Source: a virus (lineage: Duplodnaviria; Caudoviricetes). Taken from it: 64,000 nucleotides of DNA. The notes under the pieces are model-generated. The model was not told the origin of the DNA. It searched no databases and saw only the letters and a list, made by a program, of their open reading frames with translations. The translations under genes were made by a program, and so were the position numbers. The stretch covers positions 64,001 through 128,000 of the IMG/VR virus record IMGVR_UViG_3300031760_000002; one strand, 5' to 3'. This document shows, one piece after another, positions 13,543 to 52,209 of this stretch; position 1 is the stretch's first letter, and every line of letters starts with the position of its first letter.

Positions 13543-13928
13543 TTGGCCATCTCCATGGACGTAAACGATTTGGTGTTGTCAAGCATGTACAGCTGCTTCG
13601 CCATCCTGGCCTTGCCCATGACATGCTGCCTCAGTTCCGTCTCCTTGTATCTCTTGAAGCATCCGATCCTGCCGGAAGCCATGAACGCTATCGCGCGCCT
13701 GTTCAGCATGAGCACGTCTATGTCCGGGGACTCCTGCTGCCGTTCCGAATCCCATTTTTCATTGTGCTCGGTCGGCTTGAACTTATCAAGAAGGTCGTCT
13801 ACGTCCTCCGCCCCGAATACCTCTATGAAAAACTCGCGCCTCGTGCCGCCGGAGAACATTTCGTACTCCTTGTCGGCCTCGTCCTGCAACTTGGGTATAA
13901 GCTCGTCGATCTTAGCCATTGTTAACAA
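13539..13928 (-). CDS. Hypothetical protein
   Basis: Co-oriented ORF overlapping both neighbours. No recognisable motif. Confidence 0.6.
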   Translation of the reverse strand: MLTMAKIDELIPKLQDEADKEYEMFSGGTRREFFIEVFGAEDVDDLLDKFKPTEHNEKWDSERQQESPDIDVLMLNRRAIAFMASGRIGCFKRYKETELRQHVMGKARMAKQLYMLDNTKSFTSMEMAK

Positions 13929-14724
13929 TGTACGCTATCTTGTCGCCGATGGCCTTGGCCCTCTGGCTTACGGCAGCCGGAGATATGCCGAGCCTTGCGG
14001 CTACCTCCTTTGCCGGAAGCTTTTGCGCCCCGTTCAAACCTGTTATGCTGTCGAAAATGAACCTGTCGGTGCTGTCCAGCTCCCTGTATATGGCTTCCTG
14101 AGCGAACGGAATCTTGCTTGGCGTAACAACGCCTGGCGCAGACGCGCTGATGTCGTCGCCGTCCATTTCGTCGAACGAGCTGCTGGCCACGGAGGCTACC
14201 GCCTTTTTTCGTACGTCTCTGACTCTTTTTACCGTCATTCCGAGCTCGTCGGCAAGCTCCTCGTCCGTAGGCTCCCTGCCATAGTCGTCCACGAACTCGT
14301 TCATAGCTCGATTGACGGCCGCCGCCTGCCTGGCAGCCACCTCCGGTATCTTGACGTCCTTTTGCGAATTGGAATACCTGGATAGCGGCTTCAGGTTCGT
14401 CACAACCCACGAGTTCAACCTGGCTCCAGACATCGGGTTGAAACTCTTCAGGGCCTTTACCGTCAAAATCTTCGCCTGCGACCTCAGCATCGTCTTGGGG
14501 CCCGAATACCTGGTTATTTCCGAATTTATGGTCGGATAGAAAGCCTCCACGGCCTTGGACAGGTTCTCCGGAGTCTTGTCCTTGAGCCAATTGGCATAGG
14601 CCTGCTCGCCCGTTGTCAGCCCCGTCAGCTTCGGGCCTTCGGTCTTCCGCTCGTTGGCTATCGCCTGTATGCCCCTGACAACCTCGTCGAAGCCGTCGTT
14701 TTCAGTGAAGTATGGTTCTGGCAT
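13912..14724 (-). CDS. Sigma-70 family (FliA/WhiG/SigB-like) RNA polymerase sigma factor
   Basis: Degenerate region 2 (KALKSFNPMSGARLNSWV), region 3 (YGREPTDEELADELGMT) and region 4 HTH (AKEVAARLGISPAAVSQR). Start MPEPYF chosen because it lies downstream of the predicted promoter. Confidence 0.85.
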   Translation of the reverse strand: MPEPYFTENDGFDEVVRGIQAIANERKTEGPKLTGLTTGEQAYANWLKDKTPENLSKAVEAFYPTINSEITRYSGPKTMLRSQAKILTVKALKSFNPMSGARLNSWVVTNLKPLSRYSNSQKDVKIPEVAARQAAAVNRAMNEFVDDYGREPTDEELADELGMTVKRVRDVRKKAVASVASSSFDEMDGDDISASAPGVVTPSKIPFAQEAIYRELDSTDRFIFDSITGLNGAQKLPAKEVAARLGISPAAVSQRAKAIGDKIAYIVNNG

Positions 14725-14743
14725 TTCGTTTCCCGTTTCCCAG

Positions 14744-14772
14744 ATATTACACCAAGTCGAACGATGACGCAA
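14744..14772 (-). promoter_or_regulatory. Sigma70-type promoter upstream of the sigma gene
   Basis: TTGCGT-N17-TAATAT in the intergenic gap. Confidence 0.55.
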
Positions 14773-38381: not shown

Positions 38382-39176
38382 TTACTGTCCGAATTGCCGT
38401 CTGGCGACAGGCGCCGAATACGGCGCATCCCATGGTTTTGCAGGGGCGGGCTCCGGCTTCGGAGCCGCCTTGTAGTCGGCGACGGCCTTCCTCGACTCGC
38501 GCATCCTCTGGTTCCAGAGAACGGCATTTGGATCAAGCTCCTTGCCATCCTTCCTGTAGAACTCGCCGGTTTCTCCGTTGAACAGGTGGTTGTAGAACAT
38601 CGGAAGGCTTCTGCGCCCGTCCATCAGCTCCCTGTACATATCCCTCGGCGCGGCATTCGCAGCCGCCGGTGCCGACCGCCTCTTCAGGCCTCCGCCGTCG
38701 TAAAGGTAGAAGTCTCGTTCCTCGTTGGAAAGGCCGTTTCCATGTTCGTTGGCGGCAAGGGCCGTATCAATATGGCTGTTGAACTGGTCCAACCTCTCTC
38801 GAAGCTTAAGCCGCTCCTCCGGCGTGGCGGCTCCGGCCAGCTGGGCCTTCATCCAATTTTCGCCGGCGGACCTGAGCCCTTCAGCGTAACTGGCCCTCTC
38901 CTTACGTTCCCTCGCGTGGCTTCCGCTAAAAATGCTTCCGAGCGCCCTGGTCAGGAGCCATCCCTGCCTGTTGCCGTCTGCAAAACCGTCGTTAGGAAGA
39001 TACCTTGTAATGTCGCCAAGATATTTGTTGTTCTTCGCGAAGTCGAGGGCCATGTTGCGCTGGCCATTCCTGAAGTCGTCGTCTATGGCTATCTTGCACA
39101 GCACGGACGCGTCGTCGATCGACGCCCCAAGCTCCGCGCACTTCGAGAAAAACCCGTTTACATACCCCTGTGTCAT
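38382..39176 (-). CDS. Internal head protein with GFxxKCAExG leader
   Basis: MTQGYVNGFFSKCAELG..LCKIA. Confidence 0.6.
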   Translation of the reverse strand: MTQGYVNGFFSKCAELGASIDDASVLCKIAIDDDFRNGQRNMALDFAKNNKYLGDITRYLPNDGFADGNRQGWLLTRALGSIFSGSHARERKERASYAEGLRSAGENWMKAQLAGAATPEERLKLRERLDQFNSHIDTALAANEHGNGLSNEERDFYLYDGGGLKRRSAPAAANAAPRDMYRELMDGRRSLPMFYNHLFNGETGEFYRKDGKELDPNAVLWNQRMRESRKAVADYKAAPKPEPAPAKPWDAPYSAPVARRQFGQ

Positions 39177-39555: not shown

Positions 39556-42042
39556 TTATGCTCCAATCGTATCCACATCGGCGTCGGCGTCTCCGCCGCC
39601 AACGGCCTTGCGCTTCAAATCGAGGGTCAATTTGCCAAGTTGCTTGAAGCAGCTCCTGAGCGAATCCTCCATCTCGATGACGTCGTCGGTACCGTAGCGC
39701 TCTATGAAATCGTTGTGCTTCCAATAGTACAGGAACAGGACTCGGCCAAGACGGTCGACCGCCTGTATGAACTCCGGCAGGTACGAATCGATGACGGCTC
39801 CGGTATCATATACCTTCGCAAGCCCGCCTATCGCGGCCTTGTCGAAGACGTGCTTCTGACCGAGCTTCGCGGCCTCCTGTGCCAGCTGTCCGGCCTCCTC
39901 GTCGAAATCGGCCTCGCCGCCGGCGTCGCCGGACTCCTCCGACTGCCGCGAGATGTCGCCTCCTATGTTCTCTCCCTGGAAATTGTCCGGAGGAGGCAGC
40001 TCAACACCCGTAAACGGCATCTTGGACTCGTCGTAGTACGGAGATTCGTACACCGGGATTCCGGTGTACGGATCCGACTCCGGCGTCTGGCCGCCCGGCA
40101 TGTTCGTGCCAACGCCTACAAACTGTCCAAGTTTGAGCAGACACACCGACTTGCGGTTGACCGAAGCCTCCTTCAAAAGCCTCTTGGCGTCATGCCCGTC
40201 TACCCCAAGCCTCGTAACAAGCATTATCGCAGCCTGCTTGTACCCGTACGGCCGCGTGAAATGACCGCCGTCGAACCTTACGAGAAACTCGCTTCCGGTA
40301 TCCGACTGTATCTCCAGCTTCGCGGCGCCCTCCTTGCGGAGCTCCAGAGTAAGCGAGTCGATCGATCCGAGCCTGTACTCGACCTTGTCCCTCCGCTTCT
40401 TGTCTTCCGTGCTATCCGGGAATGGCGTCGTGTCGGAACCGAAATTTATGATCTCGCCGATCTGCAGCGCCTTCCAGTCGGACGGAAGCACAACGGTGCC
40501 TCCGACCTGTTTTGCGGATCCGGTGAAGTCGGCCAGCTCAATGGCGCTGATATAGCAGCTTCCGACGTTCTTCATGGACCCGTCCCTGTTATGGAACTCG
40601 TCCTTTGCCCAATAGTTGGTGAAATCGTCCTGCGGATCCGGCCTCCAATTGTCCTCCCCGTAGTACGAGAACGATCCGTTTATTACGGGGCGCTCGCCCT
40701 TGTCCCTCTTCAGGCTGGAAACGTGGTACTCCGGCATCGACGTACCGTTCTTGCTGATGAAGATGTAGTCTCCTCTAACCTCAACGTCCGGAATCTTCTT
40801 GGCGGCGTCCATAATGTCCTTTACGCCCCCAACGGCACCGCCTTCCGTGAAGATATCGCGGCTCTTCGCCGTGATCATCTGCCTGTTGTCCGGGAAATAG
40901 ACCACCATGGACGAATTGGCGCCCCTGTGGAACACCCTGTCCATGTTCATGACGTACGCCTTGACGGTCTTTCCGCCGTTCACGAGAACGTTGTAGACAC
41001 CGGGCTTGTCCGGGTTCTGGAAGTTCTTCTCGTAGTCCGTCTCGATGACGTCGGACTTCTGCTCCGGAGGACGGCTGTCGTGCACGATGAACCCGTCCTC
41101 AAGAACCTCCCTGGCCTCGTCCTCGTCCATGGCATCCGAAGTGATCCTGACTTTCGGGGCCTTCTCCGCGATCTCCTCGGCCTGCTTGCGAAGAAGATAG
41201 CAATCGCGGCCATGGTTCGGGTACGAATCGACGTGAAACGCAACCGGTCCTACGTAGAACTCCGCCGCGGCATTTGCCATTTTGACGTTGTTCAGAGACT
41301 TCAGAAGCGTTCTTTCTGCACGAGGGCCTCCCACCTTCAGGATGAAATCCCGAACCGGGGACGAAGCCGACTTCTTGAACGGGGTACGAACTCCACCCAT
41401 CGCGCAGCAGGAACCAACGAACGACGCCTTGAACTCAGGATCGTTGTCGAACCTGTCCTGTATGTCCTTCCTTATTACGTCCCATGCCTCGGCGAACTTC
41501 CACGGCTTGTCGTCGGCAGACGCGTACTTTGCGCTGTACCTTGGACCCCCGAGCGGCCCTACCGTTGGCCTCTGAAGGAACTGGAAGTTCGGATTCTCGA
41601 ACGTAGACTGGTCCCCGGCTATCTCCTGCGACTGCGCCGACGGGGCCTCGTTTCCAAGCTCCTTGGCCTTCCTGTTGATGATGTAGTTGATCCACTCCTC
41701 GGTAAGCGGCACGAACGAATTAGTCCTCTTGGACAGAATCGAATCTATGCCCTTGACCTGGCTGTTCATGAAGAACGCGGGGACGTAATAGTAATCCCCG
41801 TCGATCTTGAACCCGAAGATTCCAACGGCCCTCGTACCGTTCTCGGAGCGGTCTACGACCTCGAACCCCACGATGTACTGCATCAGGGCCGGGGCGCGAT
41901 CCTGGATGAACTGGAACGCAAGATTCGAAAAATCCTGTGCGAACTGCACTTCGTCCGGCTGCTCCTGCGCCTTCTTCTGAAGCCAGGTGTCGACGCCGGA
42001 ATCATGCGTAGCCAGCAGTGAATTGATATCGAGTTTAGCCAT
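39556..42042 (-). CDS. Large head/prohead-core protein (828 aa)
   Basis: Domains punctuated by KKA, KYAS, KSAS, KQA, KEG, KEAS and KLG. Confidence 0.55.
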   Translation of the reverse strand: MAKLDINSLLATHDSGVDTWLQKKAQEQPDEVQFAQDFSNLAFQFIQDRAPALMQYIVGFEVVDRSENGTRAVGIFGFKIDGDYYYVPAFFMNSQVKGIDSILSKRTNSFVPLTEEWINYIINRKAKELGNEAPSAQSQEIAGDQSTFENPNFQFLQRPTVGPLGGPRYSAKYASADDKPWKFAEAWDVIRKDIQDRFDNDPEFKASFVGSCCAMGGVRTPFKKSASSPVRDFILKVGGPRAERTLLKSLNNVKMANAAAEFYVGPVAFHVDSYPNHGRDCYLLRKQAEEIAEKAPKVRITSDAMDEDEAREVLEDGFIVHDSRPPEQKSDVIETDYEKNFQNPDKPGVYNVLVNGGKTVKAYVMNMDRVFHRGANSSMVVYFPDNRQMITAKSRDIFTEGGAVGGVKDIMDAAKKIPDVEVRGDYIFISKNGTSMPEYHVSSLKRDKGERPVINGSFSYYGEDNWRPDPQDDFTNYWAKDEFHNRDGSMKNVGSCYISAIELADFTGSAKQVGGTVVLPSDWKALQIGEIINFGSDTTPFPDSTEDKKRRDKVEYRLGSIDSLTLELRKEGAAKLEIQSDTGSEFLVRFDGGHFTRPYGYKQAAIMLVTRLGVDGHDAKRLLKEASVNRKSVCLLKLGQFVGVGTNMPGGQTPESDPYTGIPVYESPYYDESKMPFTGVELPPPDNFQGENIGGDISRQSEESGDAGGEADFDEEAGQLAQEAAKLGQKHVFDKAAIGGLAKVYDTGAVIDSYLPEFIQAVDRLGRVLFLYYWKHNDFIERYGTDDVIEMEDSLRSCFKQLGKLTLDLKRKAVGGGDADADVDTIGA

Positions 42043-45347: not shown

Positions 45348-45830
45348 CTACTTGCTTCTCTTCTTCTTGTCGTCTTCCTTGTCGCCTCTGTCTTTCTTCT
45401 TAGACGCGACAGCCGCAGTGCCGGCAGCAGCTCCGCCTATACCAAGAGCGGCAAGAAGCGACGCCTTAGCAGCCGGAGAAAGGGCGGACGTAGCCTGTCC
45501 TCCAGACAGAGCAGCAGCCGTACCTGCTCCTGCCGCTCCGGTAATCCCGAGCGTTGCCAGTATCCGGTCCCAGCGAAGCCCACCCTTTCCAAGCTTGGAC
45601 ACTTCGTTAAGACCGGAACCGCCAGACGACGCATAGTGCCCGCCCTTCCCGACTGCTGCCGGAACGGCCGTGACGCTATGGATCATCTTTCCCGGTTTGC
45701 GGTAAAATTTTCCAATGGCGCTCAGTACTCTTTCGAGTCCTGCCCTCTTCTGCATCTGCTCGAGTACGGCATTGCCGTCGACACCGTATTCGGCACACTT
45801 TTCGATGAACCCCTTTTCGTATCTGGTCAT
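45348..45830 (-). CDS. Internal head protein with GFxxKCAExG leader
   Basis: MTRYEKGFIEKCAEYG..QKRAG with duplicated LGIxGAAxxGTAA segments. AAAGGAGA RBS. Confidence 0.65.
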   Translation of the reverse strand: MTRYEKGFIEKCAEYGVDGNAVLEQMQKRAGLERVLSAIGKFYRKPGKMIHSVTAVPAAVGKGGHYASSGGSGLNEVSKLGKGGLRWDRILATLGITGAAGAGTAAALSGGQATSALSPAAKASLLAALGIGGAAAGTAAVASKKKDRGDKEDDKKKRSK

Positions 45831-45979: not shown

Positions 45980-47839
45980 CTAGTAATGAAACTCCTCGTT
46001 CTTATGTCCGGGAGACCCCCACTGTCCGAGCGTTACGCCCTTGGCTACGGCAGGATACGGATTGATCCCCTTCGAATTGGACGTCGCGCCACGCTGTACG
46101 TCCTCGACAAGACGCTTTCCGATGTACGTCGTTCCAAGCCTTCCCATCCAGTCGTCGGTCTGGCCGGTCGTGTATACGACAGACTGCATCTCGGGGCGGA
46201 CGCCAACGGGCTTGTCGTTGTAGAGAACCGCCGGAACCTTGAACCTGTTCAGCTCGTCCGCGACCCGCTTGGTGATCCTGGTGCCTATCGTGTAGTGAAG
46301 GGCCGGCTGCTCCAGGTATTTCCCTATCGCCTTGCTGGGAGGGGCCTGCACCGAGTTCGTACGGGGCTTGTACCCCCACGCCCATCTGGCGTACGAGACG
46401 TTGTCCCCGGGCAGCATCTGGCCCTCGGCATCCTGGTCCTCCACGACGACGTTGTTTATCAGGGCTTTCGCAACGGCCTCCACGTTGCGCCTGTTCGTCT
46501 TGTACCCGGAATCCCTGTATGCCTTCGTGAACCTTTCCGTGAAATAACGGCGGCCTTCGCCGATCCCTTTCAGCCGGACCGCGTCGGCCGGGGAGACAAC
46601 GCCATCGGACAACTGGTCCCCGGCCTCGACCTCCTGGCCTTCCTTGACGATGAGGCCGTATCCGGCCGGAACGTAATGCCTCTGGTCGTTCACGTAGACG
46701 TACTCGCCTCCCTGCGGCGCCTTCTCGATCTTCTCCACGCGACCGTCTATCTCCGACACGGTTGCCCTGTCCTTGTACACCTCCGGAACCGTGGCCATCC
46801 TCTTCAGCATGTCGAACCCGGAATACCCTACGCCTTGCTGCTTCTTGCCAGAATGCTTCATGTTGAGGCCGCCTTGGGCGATCCTTTCCGCCAATGCAGA
46901 AGCGGAATTCAATCCAAGATTGTATCCGATCTCCGGGAACTTTCCGTTCTCGCGTATTCCGGCGCAATGGGCGCACACGCCGTTCTTGGCGTTGCATGTG
47001 GTAGGAGACCTTACGGATATCATGTCCTGCCCGGACGACTTGAGATCCGCCAGAACCGACTTTGTTATGACCGTACCGGCATCGTACCCGCCGGCCGGCA
47101 TGGCCAGAACCGCGCCTATGTTGTCGTTGTCGTCGGTCTTAACGGGAAGTCCGTTCGGAGTTCCGCAATCGTCCTCCGTGACCACCTGCTCTATGGCGGC
47201 CGAGTTGAACAGCTTGCCCAGCTCGCCGGCCCTTGCCGTCGCGAACTTGGTTGATATGATGGAGGCCCTCGCGCCGTAAAGGCTGGCCCAAAACTCCGCC
47301 GGAGACAGCCCGTCCGCATAACTGTGACGGATAAAAAGAGGTATGGTCCTGCCGGATGCGTCCTGGTAGACGCCCGGCGTATTGATCATGGCTGACAGCT
47401 GGTCCTTGTTGCCCCTCGCGTTCGACTTTACCTGGAGTGCGAAGCTGTTGTTCGCCTTCAGGGCCGCGTTGTACGCGTCCAGCTTCGTCTTGTCGTAGAC
47501 CTTCCGGTACACGTCGGACAGCACTTCCTTCTTCTCGTCGTCCGTCAGCGTCTTGTCGCCGTAGATCCTGTTTTCGGCGTCGTCCAGGTTTTTATATATT
47601 GTCGACCTGTCGAACGGCGGCGCAACGTCGGAAAGACGGATCGTCGTGCCTTCCTCGAACGCCGCCTTGTTGCCGGCCCGCATCAGCTTTGACGCTATTT
47701 CGCCGTACTTGTCCGGATCGTGAGCTATGATGTCCGTCAACAGCGCGTCCAGCTCGTCCGCACCAAGCGTACGATTGTAGTCCCGGTACCTCTCCGGGAG
47801 TATCTCGTTTATTATGAGCTGTCCTACCGTTGTAGCCAT
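45980..47839 (-). CDS. rpoC: RNA polymerase beta' subunit, C-terminal half
   Basis: TTVGQ start, SNARGN, bridge helix GARASIISTKFATARAG, VTEDDCGT, RSPTTC..GVCAHCAG Zn site and trigger loop AERIAQGGLNMKH. Confidence 0.92.
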   Translation of the reverse strand: MATTVGQLIINEILPERYRDYNRTLGADELDALLTDIIAHDPDKYGEIASKLMRAGNKAAFEEGTTIRLSDVAPPFDRSTIYKNLDDAENRIYGDKTLTDDEKKEVLSDVYRKVYDKTKLDAYNAALKANNSFALQVKSNARGNKDQLSAMINTPGVYQDASGRTIPLFIRHSYADGLSPAEFWASLYGARASIISTKFATARAGELGKLFNSAAIEQVVTEDDCGTPNGLPVKTDDNDNIGAVLAMPAGGYDAGTVITKSVLADLKSSGQDMISVRSPTTCNAKNGVCAHCAGIRENGKFPEIGYNLGLNSASALAERIAQGGLNMKHSGKKQQGVGYSGFDMLKRMATVPEVYKDRATVSEIDGRVEKIEKAPQGGEYVYVNDQRHYVPAGYGLIVKEGQEVEAGDQLSDGVVSPADAVRLKGIGEGRRYFTERFTKAYRDSGYKTNRRNVEAVAKALINNVVVEDQDAEGQMLPGDNVSYARWAWGYKPRTNSVQAPPSKAIGKYLEQPALHYTIGTRITKRVADELNRFKVPAVLYNDKPVGVRPEMQSVVYTTGQTDDWMGRLGTTYIGKRLVEDVQRGATSNSKGINPYPAVAKGVTLGQWGSPGHKNEEFHY

Positions 47840-50800
47840 TATTTTCGAAGTATCTCTATCGGGTCGTTTGGACCGATCTCACCCCTGGCATAGGCCGCCT
47901 TTGCCTCCGAGACCGTATTATACACCCGGACCGGCTTTTCCGTCATCGGCCTCGTCAAGGCATACAGGCCGAAAACCTGCTCCTTGCTCGGCGTGTGCCT
48001 TGGCGAACGAAGATCCGTCAACGACGTTAGGTTCTTGGACGGAAGCATCTTCTCGTACGCCTGCCTGACCGCCTTCTCCGACGACGGCACGTGCGCGTTC
48101 ATCTGGTCTCCGTCGAAATCCGCGGTGAACGACTGCGTGATAAGCGGGCATACCTTGATCGTGCTTCCGTCCGTGAGGAATGGCCTGAACGCCGTGAAGT
48201 TGAACTTGTGCCACGTCGGCGCACGGTCAAGGATGACCGGGCGCTTCTCCATCTCCTTGACCAGAATGCTCCTGGCCGTGGCATCCCTGTCCGCGATCAT
48301 CTTGGTCGATACGGACGCCGGATACCCGTTTCTTGACAGCTCGCGCATGATGTACGGCTTGTACATCGGCCATGCCATGTCCTCCGGTATGCCGCACTGG
48401 TCCATGTCCAGGTTCGGATCCGGCGTTATGACTCCGCGGGACACGCCTCCAACGGCCTTCGATATGACCTTGTTCTGGTACATGCCGAACTTTGGCCTGG
48501 ACCCTATCACCTGCCTTATCGCGCCTTTGACGCCTTTCGCGGCGTTCTCCGGCGTTATCGGCTGTCCAAGCCCGTACGCGGCCTTCACCGACTCGTAGAT
48601 GTTCAGCCTTTCGTCAGAAACGCCATCGTCGGACAGATCCTTCCTGAGCTCCCTGAAATGGTTCGCGTTCTCTATGATGTCCTTGTACAGCTTGTTCATG
48701 TCGGAAGTAAGGGCGACGTCGCCCATCTTCGACACGGGCCTGAACATCGGAGGTATGACCGGAACCTTCGATATCATCCAATCCTTGGGATGCAGCCCCT
48801 GGTTCTTCATCGCCGTCAAGTATCTATAAACCTTGACCGCATCGTCCCTCTTCTGGCCGCGGAACGTGGTTATGCCCCTCGACGCCTCCTCGATCCTCTT
48901 GTCGACGTCTATCTTGGACAGCGCGTCCTTCAAAGCCTGGCCGCCGGTCTTGCCGTCGAGCTTCTCACGACCGGACAGTATGTCCTCCATCCTTGACGTG
49001 GTCAGGCCGAGCACCCTCCTGACAGGCTCCTCCATTATCGGGTTCGGAACAGGTTCCGGAAGCTCTATCATGGACCATTGGTTTCCGGCCATACCGCCGG
49101 TCTTGCCAAGATCGAACAAGCCTCCCTTTACCGGCTCGAAGTCGGAATCAACCATGTCGGAGGACGATATGACACGTCCTCCGGCCATCTTCTCGACATC
49201 CTTGTCGGTCTGCGGCATTATCCGGGTTATCGACCCTTTTTCAGTGACATTTATGCCGCCAGCCCTCAACGTGTTCAGGAACTTGTTGTATATGAACGGC
49301 ACATCGGGCTCCGGCGTCGGAAGCCCCAGCTGCAGCGCCCTCCAATAATCGTCGTTCCTGGTGCCGCGTATGATCTGGGTGTCTTTTATCACCTCCGGCA
49401 CGTTGTGCGCAAGCATTCCCCACAAGTCCATGCCCGAGCTCTTCTTGGCGCCCTCAAAGCCTCCCTTCGCCGGCTGTTCGTCCTGCGTATAGGCGCCGTC
49501 TGCCCCTCGGGCCGACGCCTTCTTCTCGGACAGGTGGTGGAACGCATGCATGTAGATCCATCCGTCGCCGACGTTCTTGATTGTCTTCCCGGACACGGGA
49601 TCGAACACGTCTGCTGACTCCTTGACACCGGCTTTGTCCATCTGCGCCTTCGTCCACCTGTACCACCCTTCCGGCGGAGGAAGCTGGGGGATCCGTATCT
49701 GCTTTCCGGTGGCCTTCGCCACCTTTCCGAGGGAAATCTCCATGAGCTGGTTTGGCGCCGTCCTCGACAGGAATCCCATCGGGTTGACGAGGACGTCGTA
49801 CGGTTCGTTCGTGACGGCGTCCCTCGGCATCTTGTCCATCGGTATGATGGTGCCGACCACCCCCTTCAGACCGGAGAACGGAGACAGCTTGTCGCCCACC
49901 CTAACGGGGGGCTGCGCATGCACGTTCACCTTCGCTCCAGACGACGTCTTGACAGCGTCGACGACCGTGCCCTCGTAGTCATGCTCCCAGGTCTCCGACC
50001 TGTCGGTATAAGAATTGCGAAGCGCCTTGGACAGCTTTCCAAGCGCCTTGTCGGACGATGTGAGTACCTTTGGCCCGAGCGACAACACGATAGGATCGCC
50101 CCTGTGCAGCACGGTCCCCGGCTTGACGATTCCGTTTTCGTCCAAGGTTGCTATCTGGTCCTTGGTGAACTTTGACGGGAACGCTGATATGTACCTGTTC
50201 CTGCCGAGCTGCACTCCGTTCCTGGCCTCGTGGTCGAAACTGTACAGCCTGTCCGTGGCGAGCTTCTTCGCCGCGTCCTCGCTGATCGTCCACGCGTCCT
50301 CGTAGCTCATGCCGTTCCACGGAAGTATGGCGGCCCTGAGGTTTTGGCCCATATTCAGTGCCCCGGTCTTCGCGTCCGTGTAGTTGGAATGCGCTATCAT
50401 GTCGCCGGGCTTCACGCTTTGCCCCTCCTTGACGGACGGGAAATAGCTTATTGCGGACAGCCTGTTGAACGGTACGTTCTTGGTAAGCTCGACCTTGACG
50501 GTCTTGCCGTCGTCGCCCTTGATCGTAACCGTATCGTCGTCAACCTTCGTGACAACTCCGGAAACGTCGGACTTTAGCGTACCGATTTTCCTGCCGTAGT
50601 ATTCGGACCACGTCGTCTTTCCGTCAGGCATCAGCGAGTCGACCAACGGAACCTCTCCGTTCTTCTGCGGAAGGTACTGCGACCAGAACTTCGACCCGTA
50701 GAACTGCCTCGTGGACTGGACTCCGGTCGGCATGATGTTCATGTTCGTGTTCGAGGTTATCATATGGCCGTACGACGGAACGGTGTACCGCACCTCGCTT

Positions 50801-52209
50801 CGCTTCACCCTCTGCGGTATGCCGTCCTTCATCGCAATGACGTACGGCTTTGTCATGTCCTGCCCCGGAAAGGCCACAAGCCCGTCCGACGCAGTCGCTA
50901 TGTCGACGTATGTAAGCTTCCCGGTTCTGTTGTCTATGAACTCGCCGTACAGCTTGTTGTCCTTGCCAAGGAACGTGTTGTAAGCGGCACGGACGTCTAC
51001 ACCCACTTTTTCCGACTCGGGACCCGAGTTCATGTCGACGAACCCCAAGTAGTCCCCCTGGACGTCGCGCGCCTCCATCGTGACCGCCTCCGGAGACCCT
51101 ATGCCTCCCAGTCCGAACTTGGATATCCTGGACATCTGCTCCAACGTGGAAAGCGGGTTCGCCTCCTCGCCGGGCATGGCGAGCCCAGATCCGTTTATGA
51201 TCGTATCGACCCACGGGTTAAGGGCGTTCCTCTGGATGGATTTAAGATTTCCGTTCCTCCTGGCCTTGTACAGAAGCGTATTGGCCAGGCGTCCGGCGTT
51301 CTTCTCGATGCGTTCCTTGAAATAGTCCTCGACGCCGTAGAACTTGGAAAACCTGGGGCTGTCCCTGTTGTCGGCCTTCTCATCGCCCCTGGAGACGTTC
51401 AGAAGCTTCTGCGAGGCCCTGAGGAGGAGCTCCGGCGTAACATGGTCGACGCCACGGAGGCCCATGGTCCTCTCGACGACCTCCGGATCCACCTCGTATC
51501 CGGCGATGGCGTCGCGAACGAACTGGATCTTGTCATCCTGCGTGGCGGCCGGATTCGACTTGTACCCGGCCATCCTGGAATAAAGCTTGTTCCACGCCTG
51601 AGGGTCCGCCTTTGCGGAGTTTGCCGCGGCAACGTCCGCGCCCCAGTATTTGACAATGCTCTTGTCGTCTACCCCAAGCCCGCGCAAAACCTGGTACAGC
51701 GGTATCTGCCCCTGTCCGGTCTGCAGCGACATGACGCCGGTCTCCGGGTTCAGCCCGAAATGGAACGCGTGCCCTGTGCCCGGCCTGATGTTGAACTGCG
51801 CCTCGTATTCGCCGTTGGACTTCCGCCTTGCATAGACGCCAGGACGAAGCCTTGACTGCGAAATGACCGTGTACTCGGACCCGTTGTTTATAATCGTTCC
51901 GCGGTCGGTCCAGTACGGAACCTGCATGACGGAATCCTTGCGCTGGTCCAGCACCTTCCCGGTCTTCTTGTCGGTGAGCCTCCAGGTGCCGACCAGGTTT
52001 GTCCTTAGATTCCTGTTCCTCAGGATGGCGTCCTTCTGCTGCTTCAGCGTGAACTCCTGCGGACCGTCGTATGCGATGTCCACAAGCTCCAGCCTGTAGT
52101 TGTCGTCCTCGACTGGAAAACGCTTCTGCATCGCGGAAAGAACATTGTCGTAAATGTTCCTTCTGGCCGATTTTGCATCGTCGAACGCCCTGAGACCGTC
52201 TGGAATCAT
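47839..52209 (-). CDS. rpoBC: RNA polymerase beta subunit fused to the beta' N-terminal half (catalytic DFDGD)
   Basis: Beta motifs SQSRLRPGVY, NPLS..RIS, ARDVQ, GQNL, SYEDA, VGDKLS..GLKGVV and NPMGFLSR. Then beta' motifs GGLFD, PVIPPMFRP, SRGVI, DRAPTWH and FTADFDGDQM. Confidence 0.93.
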   Translation of the reverse strand: MIPDGLRAFDDAKSARRNIYDNVLSAMQKRFPVEDDNYRLELVDIAYDGPQEFTLKQQKDAILRNRNLRTNLVGTWRLTDKKTGKVLDQRKDSVMQVPYWTDRGTIINNGSEYTVISQSRLRPGVYARRKSNGEYEAQFNIRPGTGHAFHFGLNPETGVMSLQTGQGQIPLYQVLRGLGVDDKSIVKYWGADVAAANSAKADPQAWNKLYSRMAGYKSNPAATQDDKIQFVRDAIAGYEVDPEVVERTMGLRGVDHVTPELLLRASQKLLNVSRGDEKADNRDSPRFSKFYGVEDYFKERIEKNAGRLANTLLYKARRNGNLKSIQRNALNPWVDTIINGSGLAMPGEEANPLSTLEQMSRISKFGLGGIGSPEAVTMEARDVQGDYLGFVDMNSGPESEKVGVDVRAAYNTFLGKDNKLYGEFIDNRTGKLTYVDIATASDGLVAFPGQDMTKPYVIAMKDGIPQRVKRSEVRYTVPSYGHMITSNTNMNIMPTGVQSTRQFYGSKFWSQYLPQKNGEVPLVDSLMPDGKTTWSEYYGRKIGTLKSDVSGVVTKVDDDTVTIKGDDGKTVKVELTKNVPFNRLSAISYFPSVKEGQSVKPGDMIAHSNYTDAKTGALNMGQNLRAAILPWNGMSYEDAWTISEDAAKKLATDRLYSFDHEARNGVQLGRNRYISAFPSKFTKDQIATLDENGIVKPGTVLHRGDPIVLSLGPKVLTSSDKALGKLSKALRNSYTDRSETWEHDYEGTVVDAVKTSSGAKVNVHAQPPVRVGDKLSPFSGLKGVVGTIIPMDKMPRDAVTNEPYDVLVNPMGFLSRTAPNQLMEISLGKVAKATGKQIRIPQLPPPEGWYRWTKAQMDKAGVKESADVFDPVSGKTIKNVGDGWIYMHAFHHLSEKKASARGADGAYTQDEQPAKGGFEGAKKSSGMDLWGMLAHNVPEVIKDTQIIRGTRNDDYWRALQLGLPTPEPDVPFIYNKFLNTLRAGGINVTEKGSITRIMPQTDKDVEKMAGGRVISSSDMVDSDFEPVKGGLFDLGKTGGMAGNQWSMIELPEPVPNPIMEEPVRRVLGLTTSRMEDILSGREKLDGKTGGQALKDALSKIDVDKRIEEASRGITTFRGQKRDDAVKVYRYLTAMKNQGLHPKDWMISKVPVIPPMFRPVSKMGDVALTSDMNKLYKDIIENANHFRELRKDLSDDGVSDERLNIYESVKAAYGLGQPITPENAAKGVKGAIRQVIGSRPKFGMYQNKVISKAVGGVSRGVITPDPNLDMDQCGIPEDMAWPMYKPYIMRELSRNGYPASVSTKMIADRDATARSILVKEMEKRPVILDRAPTWHKFNFTAFRPFLTDGSTIKVCPLITQSFTADFDGDQMNAHVPSSEKAVRQAYEKMLPSKNLTSLTDLRSPRHTPSKEQVFGLYALTRPMTEKPVRVYNTVSEAKAAYARGEIGPNDPIEILRK

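Follow-up and report, generated by a model that had tools for sequence, protein, structure and literature searches.

Which enzyme is encoded by the pair of overlapping RNA polymerase (RNAP) genes in an uncultured cattle-gut phage, and does it belong to the phage in its own right? The two genes lie in the window analyzed here, a 64,000-nucleotide stretch that corresponds to bases 64001-128000 of IMG/VR virus record IMGVR_UViG_3300031760_000002 (176,839 bp, 100% complete according to CheckV); the public sequencing runs containing the polymerase stretch are bovine-gut metagenomes. The first gene encodes a fusion of the beta subunit with the N-terminal part of beta' (beta::beta'N), and the second the remaining, C-terminal part of beta' (beta'C). 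In our assessment, the pair probably represents a two-chain, self-contained, sigma-dependent and virion-carried phage RNAP of an old lineage that is sister to bacterial RNAP. Phage multisubunit RNAPs are a known kind, and the two-chain variant already sits, unrecognized, in public phage genomes. The layout is common to hundreds of phages, yet apparently never described in print, as our literature searches found no published description of a phage beta::beta' fusion of this layout.

Architecture of the two polymerase chains

The first gene (47839..52209, minus strand, as are all window features given below) encodes a protein of 1456 residues (P0001; hereafter, chain 1). Its beta module, delimited by Pfam and NCBIfam matches, motifs and alignment, covers residues 1-988 (49246..52209) and ends with the beta C-terminal motif PFIYNKFLNTLRAGGINV (49246-49299). 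The beta'N module, recognized by its alignment with bacterial beta' N-termini and by fold matches to beta' N-halves, covers residues 989-1456 (47839..49245) and includes the clamp-helix region and a double-psi beta-barrel (DPBB). Pfam placed the beta domains Rpb2_2, Rpb2_3 and Rpb2_6 at residues 123-916 and the beta' domains Rpb1_1 and Rpb1_2 at residues 1131-1386 of the same chain (E values of 9.5e-40 for Rpb2_6 and 6.4e-23 for Rpb1_2). The NCBIfam models followed the same order, with positions 389-1093 of rpoB aligned to residues 325-989 and positions 156-534 of rpoC to residues 1082-1454. When chain 1 was aligned with the beta' N-termini of four bacteria from fetched loci, the beta' N-terminal segment (LASP..W..GEV...GLF) started approximately seven residues past the C-terminal GINV of beta. 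Both catalytic signatures are present, i.e., the two-lysine active-site loop of the beta DPBB (GDKLSPFSGLKG, residues 772-783; 49861-49896) and the DFDGD triad of the beta' DPBB (48106-48120; TADFDGDQM at residues 1362-1370). A stop follows directly after residue 1456, so that beta' is not entire on chain 1.

The second gene (45980..47839) encodes 619 residues (P0002; hereafter, chain 2) starting with MATTVGQ, and was assigned to beta'C from its open reading frame (ORF), the Pfam domain Rpb1_5, NCBIfam and PDB matches to beta'. Residues 2-485 aligned with positions 549-1063 of the rpoC model (to 1147 in part of the match). The stop codon of chain 1 and the start codon of chain 2 share one base at 47839, within TAATG (AAATAATGGCT). 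The cut is close to the one between cyanobacterial rpoC1 and rpoC2, with position 27 of the rpoC2_cyan model aligned to residue 44 of chain 2 and a cyanobacterial gamma subunit as the top fold match. An AF2 model of residues 900-1456 of chain 1 was of moderate confidence (predicted local distance difference test score, pLDDT, 69.9; predicted template modeling score, pTM, 0.56; first 52 residues disordered), and matched the Synechococcus gamma subunit best in the PDB (9dvs_D, E = 1.6e-29).

The zinc sites of beta' are unequally preserved. Between GGLFD (49111-49125) and WSMIELPEP (49051-49077), the 32-residue four-cysteine segment of bacteria (GLF to the MGHIEL-equivalent) is replaced in the alignment by an 11-residue glycine-rich loop, LGKTGGMAGNQ (49078..49110), and only two cysteines (1272 and 1354) occur among the 1456 residues of chain 1. 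Chain 2 has four cysteines in total (Cys225, Cys282, Cys289 and Cys292; 46964..47167), which we take, by comparison with E. coli beta', to be the second beta' zinc site. The same zinc-domain deletion was seen in every member of the clade examined, including Salmonella phage Arash and Vibrio phage D69.

Most of this had been read from the letters by the initial annotation, i.e., a compact beta running in frame into beta' past DFDGD, a missing N-terminal zinc ribbon, a second ORF starting at TTVGQ by TAATG coupling, a cut near the cyanobacterial one, and an overall bacterial-like character. The profile matches and alignments agree on each point, the quoted motifs are all in place, and the closest solved structures of the two chains are bacterial beta and beta' (E about 1e-52 and 1e-41). 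The two overlapping genes provide the whole catalytic core of a phage-owned bacterial-type RNAP on two chains, with both DPBBs, hence the active centre, on chain 1, and with the rest of beta' (the part aligned with rpoC 549-1063) and the second zinc site supplied by chain 2.

Sigma factor, absent subunits and possible virion packaging

The closest published relatives were found by tblastn against 50,697 phage records, which returned four full-length matches with 29-30% identity, from phage Arash (OQ632216.1) and Vibrio phages D69, D148 and D181; a near-identity DNA search of the phage collection gave no match to the window. In Arash, gp206 (1525 residues) is annotated as 'RNA polymerase subunit beta', and gp216 (606 residues) is encoded 4.8 kb downstream.

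The initial annotation mentioned no sigma factor, and a sigma-70-family gene does lie in the same window, comprising about 270 residues from Met17 of P0128 (13912..14724). It is a homologue of Arash Gp10, which matched 13912-14772 by tblastn (E = 1e-16). Read from the probable start at Met17, it matched Sigma70_r3 (4e-13) and Sigma70_r4 (9e-7) in Pfam, and the NCBIfam models of FliA and SigB/F/G aligned over most of it, below their cut-offs. It was missed in the first reading probably because region 2 is so diverged, and came to light here only by way of the Arash protein. A homologue was detected in nine of ten clade genomes, two with a complete single-chain polymerase included, and the lone blank is a 25%-complete fragment. 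Co-folding of the sigma factor with residues 1081-1456 of chain 1 scored 0.48, against 0.26 for the best control (scores up to 0.60 are weak), a mark reached by 58 of 80 solved complexes and by 2 of 110 mismatched pairs. Between runs, at least 53% of the contacts recurred, and the partner had a pLDDT of at least 64. This weakly supports the pairing, and as sigma-beta' complexes have already been solved, the pass may reflect likeness only.

Neither alpha (PF01000, PF01193) nor omega (PF01192) was matched by profile search in the 100%-complete genome, with positive controls in 14 of 14 genomes, and alpha (PF01193) was likewise unmatched in five 100%-complete relatives with positive controls. The lack of alpha that the initial annotation had noted for the window is confirmed and extends to the whole 176,839-bp genome, over which it had proposed that alpha and omega be sought. 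Rpb2_6 matched only once, and the two-chain enzyme is the only RNAP predicted from this genome. A T7-type RNAP (PF00940) was also unmatched in the genome, a blank that says little as the control matched in no genome either. Crude 8-mer enrichment over 78 upstream regions revealed no promoter motif, only ribosome-binding-site-like words.

Where might such an enzyme act? In the mass spectrometry (MS) of Arash virions, Gp206 was the most-detected protein (3516 spectra, 128 unique peptides, 100% coverage), ahead of the major capsid protein in the preparation, and Gp216 and the sigma factor Gp10 were represented by 1210 and 467 spectra, respectively (PMC10585845). Packaging in the virion, suggested earlier from the gene neighborhood, is plausible by this analogy, and in the window the polymerase genes are inside a long same-strand block with leader-bearing, cargo-like genes.

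Several relatives have N-terminal additions on the polymerase chain, in some cases an InPase domain by itself. P0084 has an InPase domain (37-169), a LysM domain (217-258) and a phage-tail lysozyme domain (290-380), a 2H phosphoesterase domain ('Swiss Army Knife') is present in P0150, and P0054 is also among the chains with N-terminal add-ons; chain 1 of the window has no extension of this kind. A peptidoglycan-binding and lytic module on a polymerase chain would suit a protein whose way out of the virion crosses the cell wall.

We propose that the core works with the phage sigma factor encoded at 13912-14724, and without alpha, omega and the beta' zinc-binding domain, and that the covalent beta-beta' link may replace the alpha dimer in assembly. 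As the Arash proteome and the cell-wall modules of relatives suggest by analogy, core and sigma would be packaged in the capsid and delivered to the cell along with the DNA. Transcription of the early phage genes, and possibly of all of them, would then proceed without the host polymerase, and as the only polymerase of the genome, the enzyme may also serve later genes. The layout would have been inherited from an old phage lineage, with one cut before TTxGQ in a loop that is variable among bacteria.

Some observations weigh against this proposal. Because phage sigma factors commonly redirect the host polymerase, the pairing of this one with the phage core is proposed rather than proven; Pfam does not recognize its strongly diverged region 2, and six-frame searching of the genome gave no Sigma70_r2 match. 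The profile searches would miss a substitute for alpha or omega that is non-homologous or very diverged, and the enzyme of the window phage is known here from its genes. The GFxxKC leader is absent from the N-termini of both polymerase chains, unlike the neighboring putative cargo genes. The Arash virion MS comprised 116 proteins, including ribonucleotide reductases, and its authors allow for carry-over of abundant infection proteins (PMC10585845).

The absent leader and the metabolic enzymes in the Arash preparation would also suit a polymerase made after infection and kept out of the virion, one that transcribes middle and late genes while the host RNAP transcribes the early ones, the Arash signal being carry-over. 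The phiKZ-type phages, moreover, need two polymerases for the two roles, and the window genome has one. However, Gp206 exceeded even the major capsid protein and was accompanied by the sigma factor (PMC10585845), cell-wall-binding and lytic modules are fused to the polymerase chain of relatives, and the window genes share a strand block with putative cargo-like, leader-bearing genes. We regard a non-virion enzyme as unlikely.

A hybrid in which only the catalytic subunits are replaced, the phage chains being joined by the host alpha dimer and omega and possibly by a host sigma, has even less in its favor. The chains are bacterial-like (30-35% identity), and borrowing is conceivable because the phage alpha and omega were not found by profile search. 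Against this, no bacterial phylum stands closer to the clade than the others, and its members come from a wide range of hosts (Salmonella, Vibrio, and those of gut and aquatic metagenomes), so that conserved interfaces with the alpha of each host are unlikely. The multisubunit polymerases of phiKZ/AR9 function without alpha (PMC7598289), and a hybrid could not be pre-assembled in the virion. We consider such an enzyme quite improbable, and retain the self-contained, virion-carried polymerase as the preferred reading.

Distribution and origin of the fused clade

The reality of the layout was evaluated using contigs from four public runs (three studies), which differed over the 6.2-kb stretch by substitutions only, with zero indels. 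The beta/beta' junction is bridged by contigs in runs X1, X3 and X4, and the beta'N/beta'C boundary by contigs in X1, X2 and X3. X3 and X4 belong to a different study, and the X3 contig that crosses both places is approximately 2% divergent. The fusion, for which the initial annotation had proposed confirmation in reads, is intact in these independent-run contigs. None of the public runs listed for the stretch is an RNA dataset. Among 5.8 billion clustered proteins, at least 120 clusters with 58-90% identity were found, all with Rpb2_6 and Rpb1_2 on one chain; their contigs reach 206 kb. A query extending across the junction (residues 760-1456 of chain 1) was also searched against 1.84 billion 50%-identity representatives. 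All of the best 150 (E no worse than 1e-156) span from the beta barrel to the end of beta'N on one chain, and 184 of the 201 homologues matched over the full query have their end no more than 5 residues from that of chain 1.

For layout comparison, 80 IMG/VR loci with 34-62% identity over the beta'N region were taken with 10-kb flanks. The beta::beta'N form was found at 60 loci, ending within four residues of the same place at 58 of them (L099 and L113 extend 26 and 577 residues past the aligned part, respectively). Where within reach, beta'C follows downstream at a distance of 625 to 8441 bases and on the same strand, except at one locus, where it is about 9 kb upstream. The one-base overlap in the window is unusual; it recurs in a relative with 89% identity, and a relative with 77% identity has 8.6 kb between the genes. 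Nine loci are partial or interrupted by inserts. The remaining 11 (L159-L162, L164, L165 and L167-L171) have a single ORF of 1865-2507 residues with beta, beta'N and beta'C, and these ORFs are, as judged from their domains, complete single-chain bacterial-type polymerases in phages. The complete fusions read straight across the cut and are colinear with the window, for example VTIRGLKTTVGK in L162 versus IEILRK stop / MATTVGQ in the window, and bacteria have a variable insert of 20-35 residues at this spot. The single chain of L162 is encoded at L162:6611-13087; of three such genomes searched, two have a sigma homologue and the third is a 25%-complete fragment.

Arash, D69, D148 and D181 resemble the window phage in having beta::beta'N of 1525-1527 residues, a separate beta'C of 606-609 residues, the zinc-domain deletion and a homologous sigma factor, and they form one monophyletic group with it. 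Homologues of the Arash TerL and portal proteins were also detected in the window genome by tblastn, and because TerL, portal and sigma are shared, Arash and the window phage are, by gene content, distant kin. The differences are an identity of approximately 30% and gene spacings of 4.8 kb (Arash) and 0.7 kb (D69), versus the one-base overlap. The Arash genes were annotated simply as beta and beta', with the fusion, the cut and the missing alpha unmentioned (PMC10585845). Because the large, old clade includes published phage genomes, the architecture is not particular to this phage. Arash gp217, a helicase (N-terminal part), had no tblastn match in the window genome. Genes lying between the two polymerase genes in relatives were considered as a conserved extra subunit and rejected, as none has a convincing homologue in the window genome.

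Inserts are frequent in the clade. Many relatives have LAGLIDADG inteins, some two or three, with chains of up to 3038 residues. A recurrent intein point corresponds to about residue 1368 of chain 1, inside ADFDGD, and inteins also occur in the beta DPBB. In L101, L104, L106 and Vibrio phages D181 and D148, the beta part is broken by non-coding or homing-endonuclease inserts of 0.8-2.2 kb.

To place the clade, a phylogeny with bacterial and phage RNAPs, as proposed by the initial annotation, was built from beta'N (LG+C20, 44 rows, 380 columns; supports are given as pairs). The fused clade, including Arash and D69, was monophyletic (100/99), as were the 24 bacteria from 12 phyla (100/99), and the two were sisters with respect to other phage polymerases (96/92). 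In a tree of beta'N and beta'C (41 rows, 859 columns), the clade (100/100) and the bacteria (100/96) were again recovered, and the cut forms grouped in one clade (91/95). These trees sampled bacteria as best hits, lack an archaeal outgroup and contain several long phage branches. The sole Campylobacterota row (L083, an Aliarcobacter metagenome-assembled genome) grouped with bacteria and not with phages, Helicobacter and Wolbachia being outside the sample. When one genome for each of 185,579 bacterial and archaeal species was scanned, the best 80 matches were ordinary rpoC only (30-35% identity), with no phylum prominent and no clade member among them. As a monophyletic sister group of all sampled Bacteria, the clade is, on this phylogeny, not a recent capture from bacteria.

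In bacteria and other phages, beta' is whole and beta is separate, so the shortest path to the observed forms is one fusion followed by one cut. Most likely, the complete beta::beta' fusion is the older form, and a single cut before TTxGQ followed. This order follows from parsimony and is not proven; as a group, the complete fusions received only 78/39 in the beta'N and beta'C tree. The term 're-cut', used in the initial annotation, is best understood as a single cut introduced into a beta::beta' fusion that was complete in the ancestor and is extant in sister phages. A bolder version of our proposal, in which the clade has the simplest known sigma-dependent cellular-type RNAP, with a two-chain or one-chain core and no alpha, omega or N-terminal zinc domain, carried in the capsid and injected together with sigma, and descended from a lineage that split from bacterial RNAP ahead of the divergence of the sampled bacterial phyla, may hold and is advanced here only tentatively.

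That the fusion or the split arose as an error of sequencing or assembly, or marks a decaying gene acquired not long ago from a bacterial host, is hardly credible: unusual gene structures do at times turn out to be errors of metagenome assembly, a prior consideration only, but the junctions are crossed indel-free in independent runs, the same layout occurs in hundreds of independent assemblies and in cultured phages, peptides cover 100% of Arash Gp206 (PMC10585845), the catalytic motifs are all intact, bacteria are monophyletic to the exclusion of the phage clade, and the bacterial genome scan returned no clade member in its best 80 matches.

Other uncut phage enzymes were seen in this sampling. 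The cultured Rhizobium phage RHph_Y65 (L004), Vibrio phage Va2 (L005), Yersinia phage GN1 (L089) and Vibrio phage 1.031.O (L091), with genomes of 128-207 kb, have an uncut beta' of 1090-1263 residues that branches outside the group of bacteria and the fused clade. The diversity of multisubunit polymerases in phages is greater than the phiKZ model would imply.

Comparison with known polymerases and neighboring features

The phiKZ/AR9-type enzymes (Chimalliviridae and kin) are also two-barrel polymerases without alpha and omega, the cut in their beta' lies past the DPBB, no more than about 35 residues from that in the window, and one of their sets is packaged in the virion. The phiKZ-like beta'N genes of RP13 and IME392 end at approximately residues 1421-1424 of chain 1, and the phiKZ beta' cut was reported to follow the DPBB and to coincide with the cyanobacterial cut (PMC7598289). 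Because both place the phiKZ cut nearby, the beta' cut is a recurrent site. The initial annotation held that phiKZ-type RNAPs are split differently, which is correct for beta and not for beta', where the phiKZ-like beta'N ends only about 35 residues earlier. In these phages, beta is in two or three pieces and is not fused to beta', and there are two paralogous sets rather than one. They are also more diverged from bacteria (PHROG E values of 1e-11 to 1e-16, versus 1e-49 to 1e-59 for unsplit phage beta/beta' families), and are on tree branches separate from the window clade. The phiKZ-type RNAPs have no sigma factor, and a survey of jumbo phages described only phiKZ-type cut enzymes and YonO-like single chains (PMC7824862). 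The window differs from the phiKZ type in its whole and fused beta, single Rpb2_6 match and sigma factor.

The rpoB-rpoC fusions of Helicobacter and Wolbachia (NF007172, NF011417) share the head-to-tail order of beta and beta' and were the top NCBIfam matches, far below cut-off. The window differs in its cut beta', the complete fusion being found instead in the sister phages L159-L171. In Helicobacter and Wolbachia, beta' is whole and keeps the zinc-binding domain, and the alpha dimer and omega are still used. Cyanobacteria and plastids have gamma (rpoC1) and beta'' (rpoC2) cut in the same inter-domain region, but about 20 core residues further on, with a separate beta and with alpha, omega and the zinc-binding domain present.

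The polymerases of mReC, the RNAP-encoding Caudovirales of Weinheimer and Aylward (2020), are, like those of the window clade, from metagenomic tailed phages and are deeply branching bacterial-like beta/beta' (PMC7481178). They were rejected as a prior description, as the mReC entries examined in the supplementary table all have separate uncut genes for beta (about 1000-1400 residues) and beta' (about 900-1300 residues), and the paper mentions no fusion, cut or sigma factor for them (PMC7481178). The Gp23 capsid protein (PF07068) had no match in the window genome, and the control matched nowhere, so this result is uninformative.

The alpha dimer is generally regarded as an assembly platform that cellular-type RNAPs cannot do without. 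The phiKZ-type enzymes already show that alpha can be bypassed, but those are very diverged and have no sigma. The window clade aligns throughout with bacterial RNAP and keeps a sigma-70-type factor, yet is predicted to dispense with alpha, omega and the zinc-binding domain, its two barrels being covalently tied. It may thus serve as a minimal natural system for studying how the core is assembled, sigma docks and RNA-exit functions are carried out without those parts, as well as the packaging and ejection of a 230-kDa enzyme, and it bears on the time at which the polymerases of phages and bacteria diverged. Compact, sigma-dependent and encoded by one or two genes, such a polymerase would also be a candidate orthogonal transcription system, and the cultured members Arash and D69 make these questions testable.

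In the neighborhood of the polymerase genes, three minus-strand ORFs (starts at 39176, 43341 and 45830) share the leader x-x-G-F-x-x-K-C-A-E, the last of which (45348-45830) is directly downstream of beta'C. Pfam and PHROG scans of the ten ORFs neighboring the polymerase genes gave nothing useful, and the cargo or structural role of these genes is putative. An ORF of 828 residues (39556-42042), also without a Pfam or PHROG match, weakly resembles in its first and last 90 or so residues the ends of VPHD69_0266 of D69 (E values of 3e-7 and 5e-6), which is encoded two genes after the D69 beta'C. Approximately 7.5 kb beyond the window end, the homologue of the Arash/D69 portal gene (C1:135525-137822) is in two pieces about 850 bases apart, which suggests an intein, an intron or another insert.

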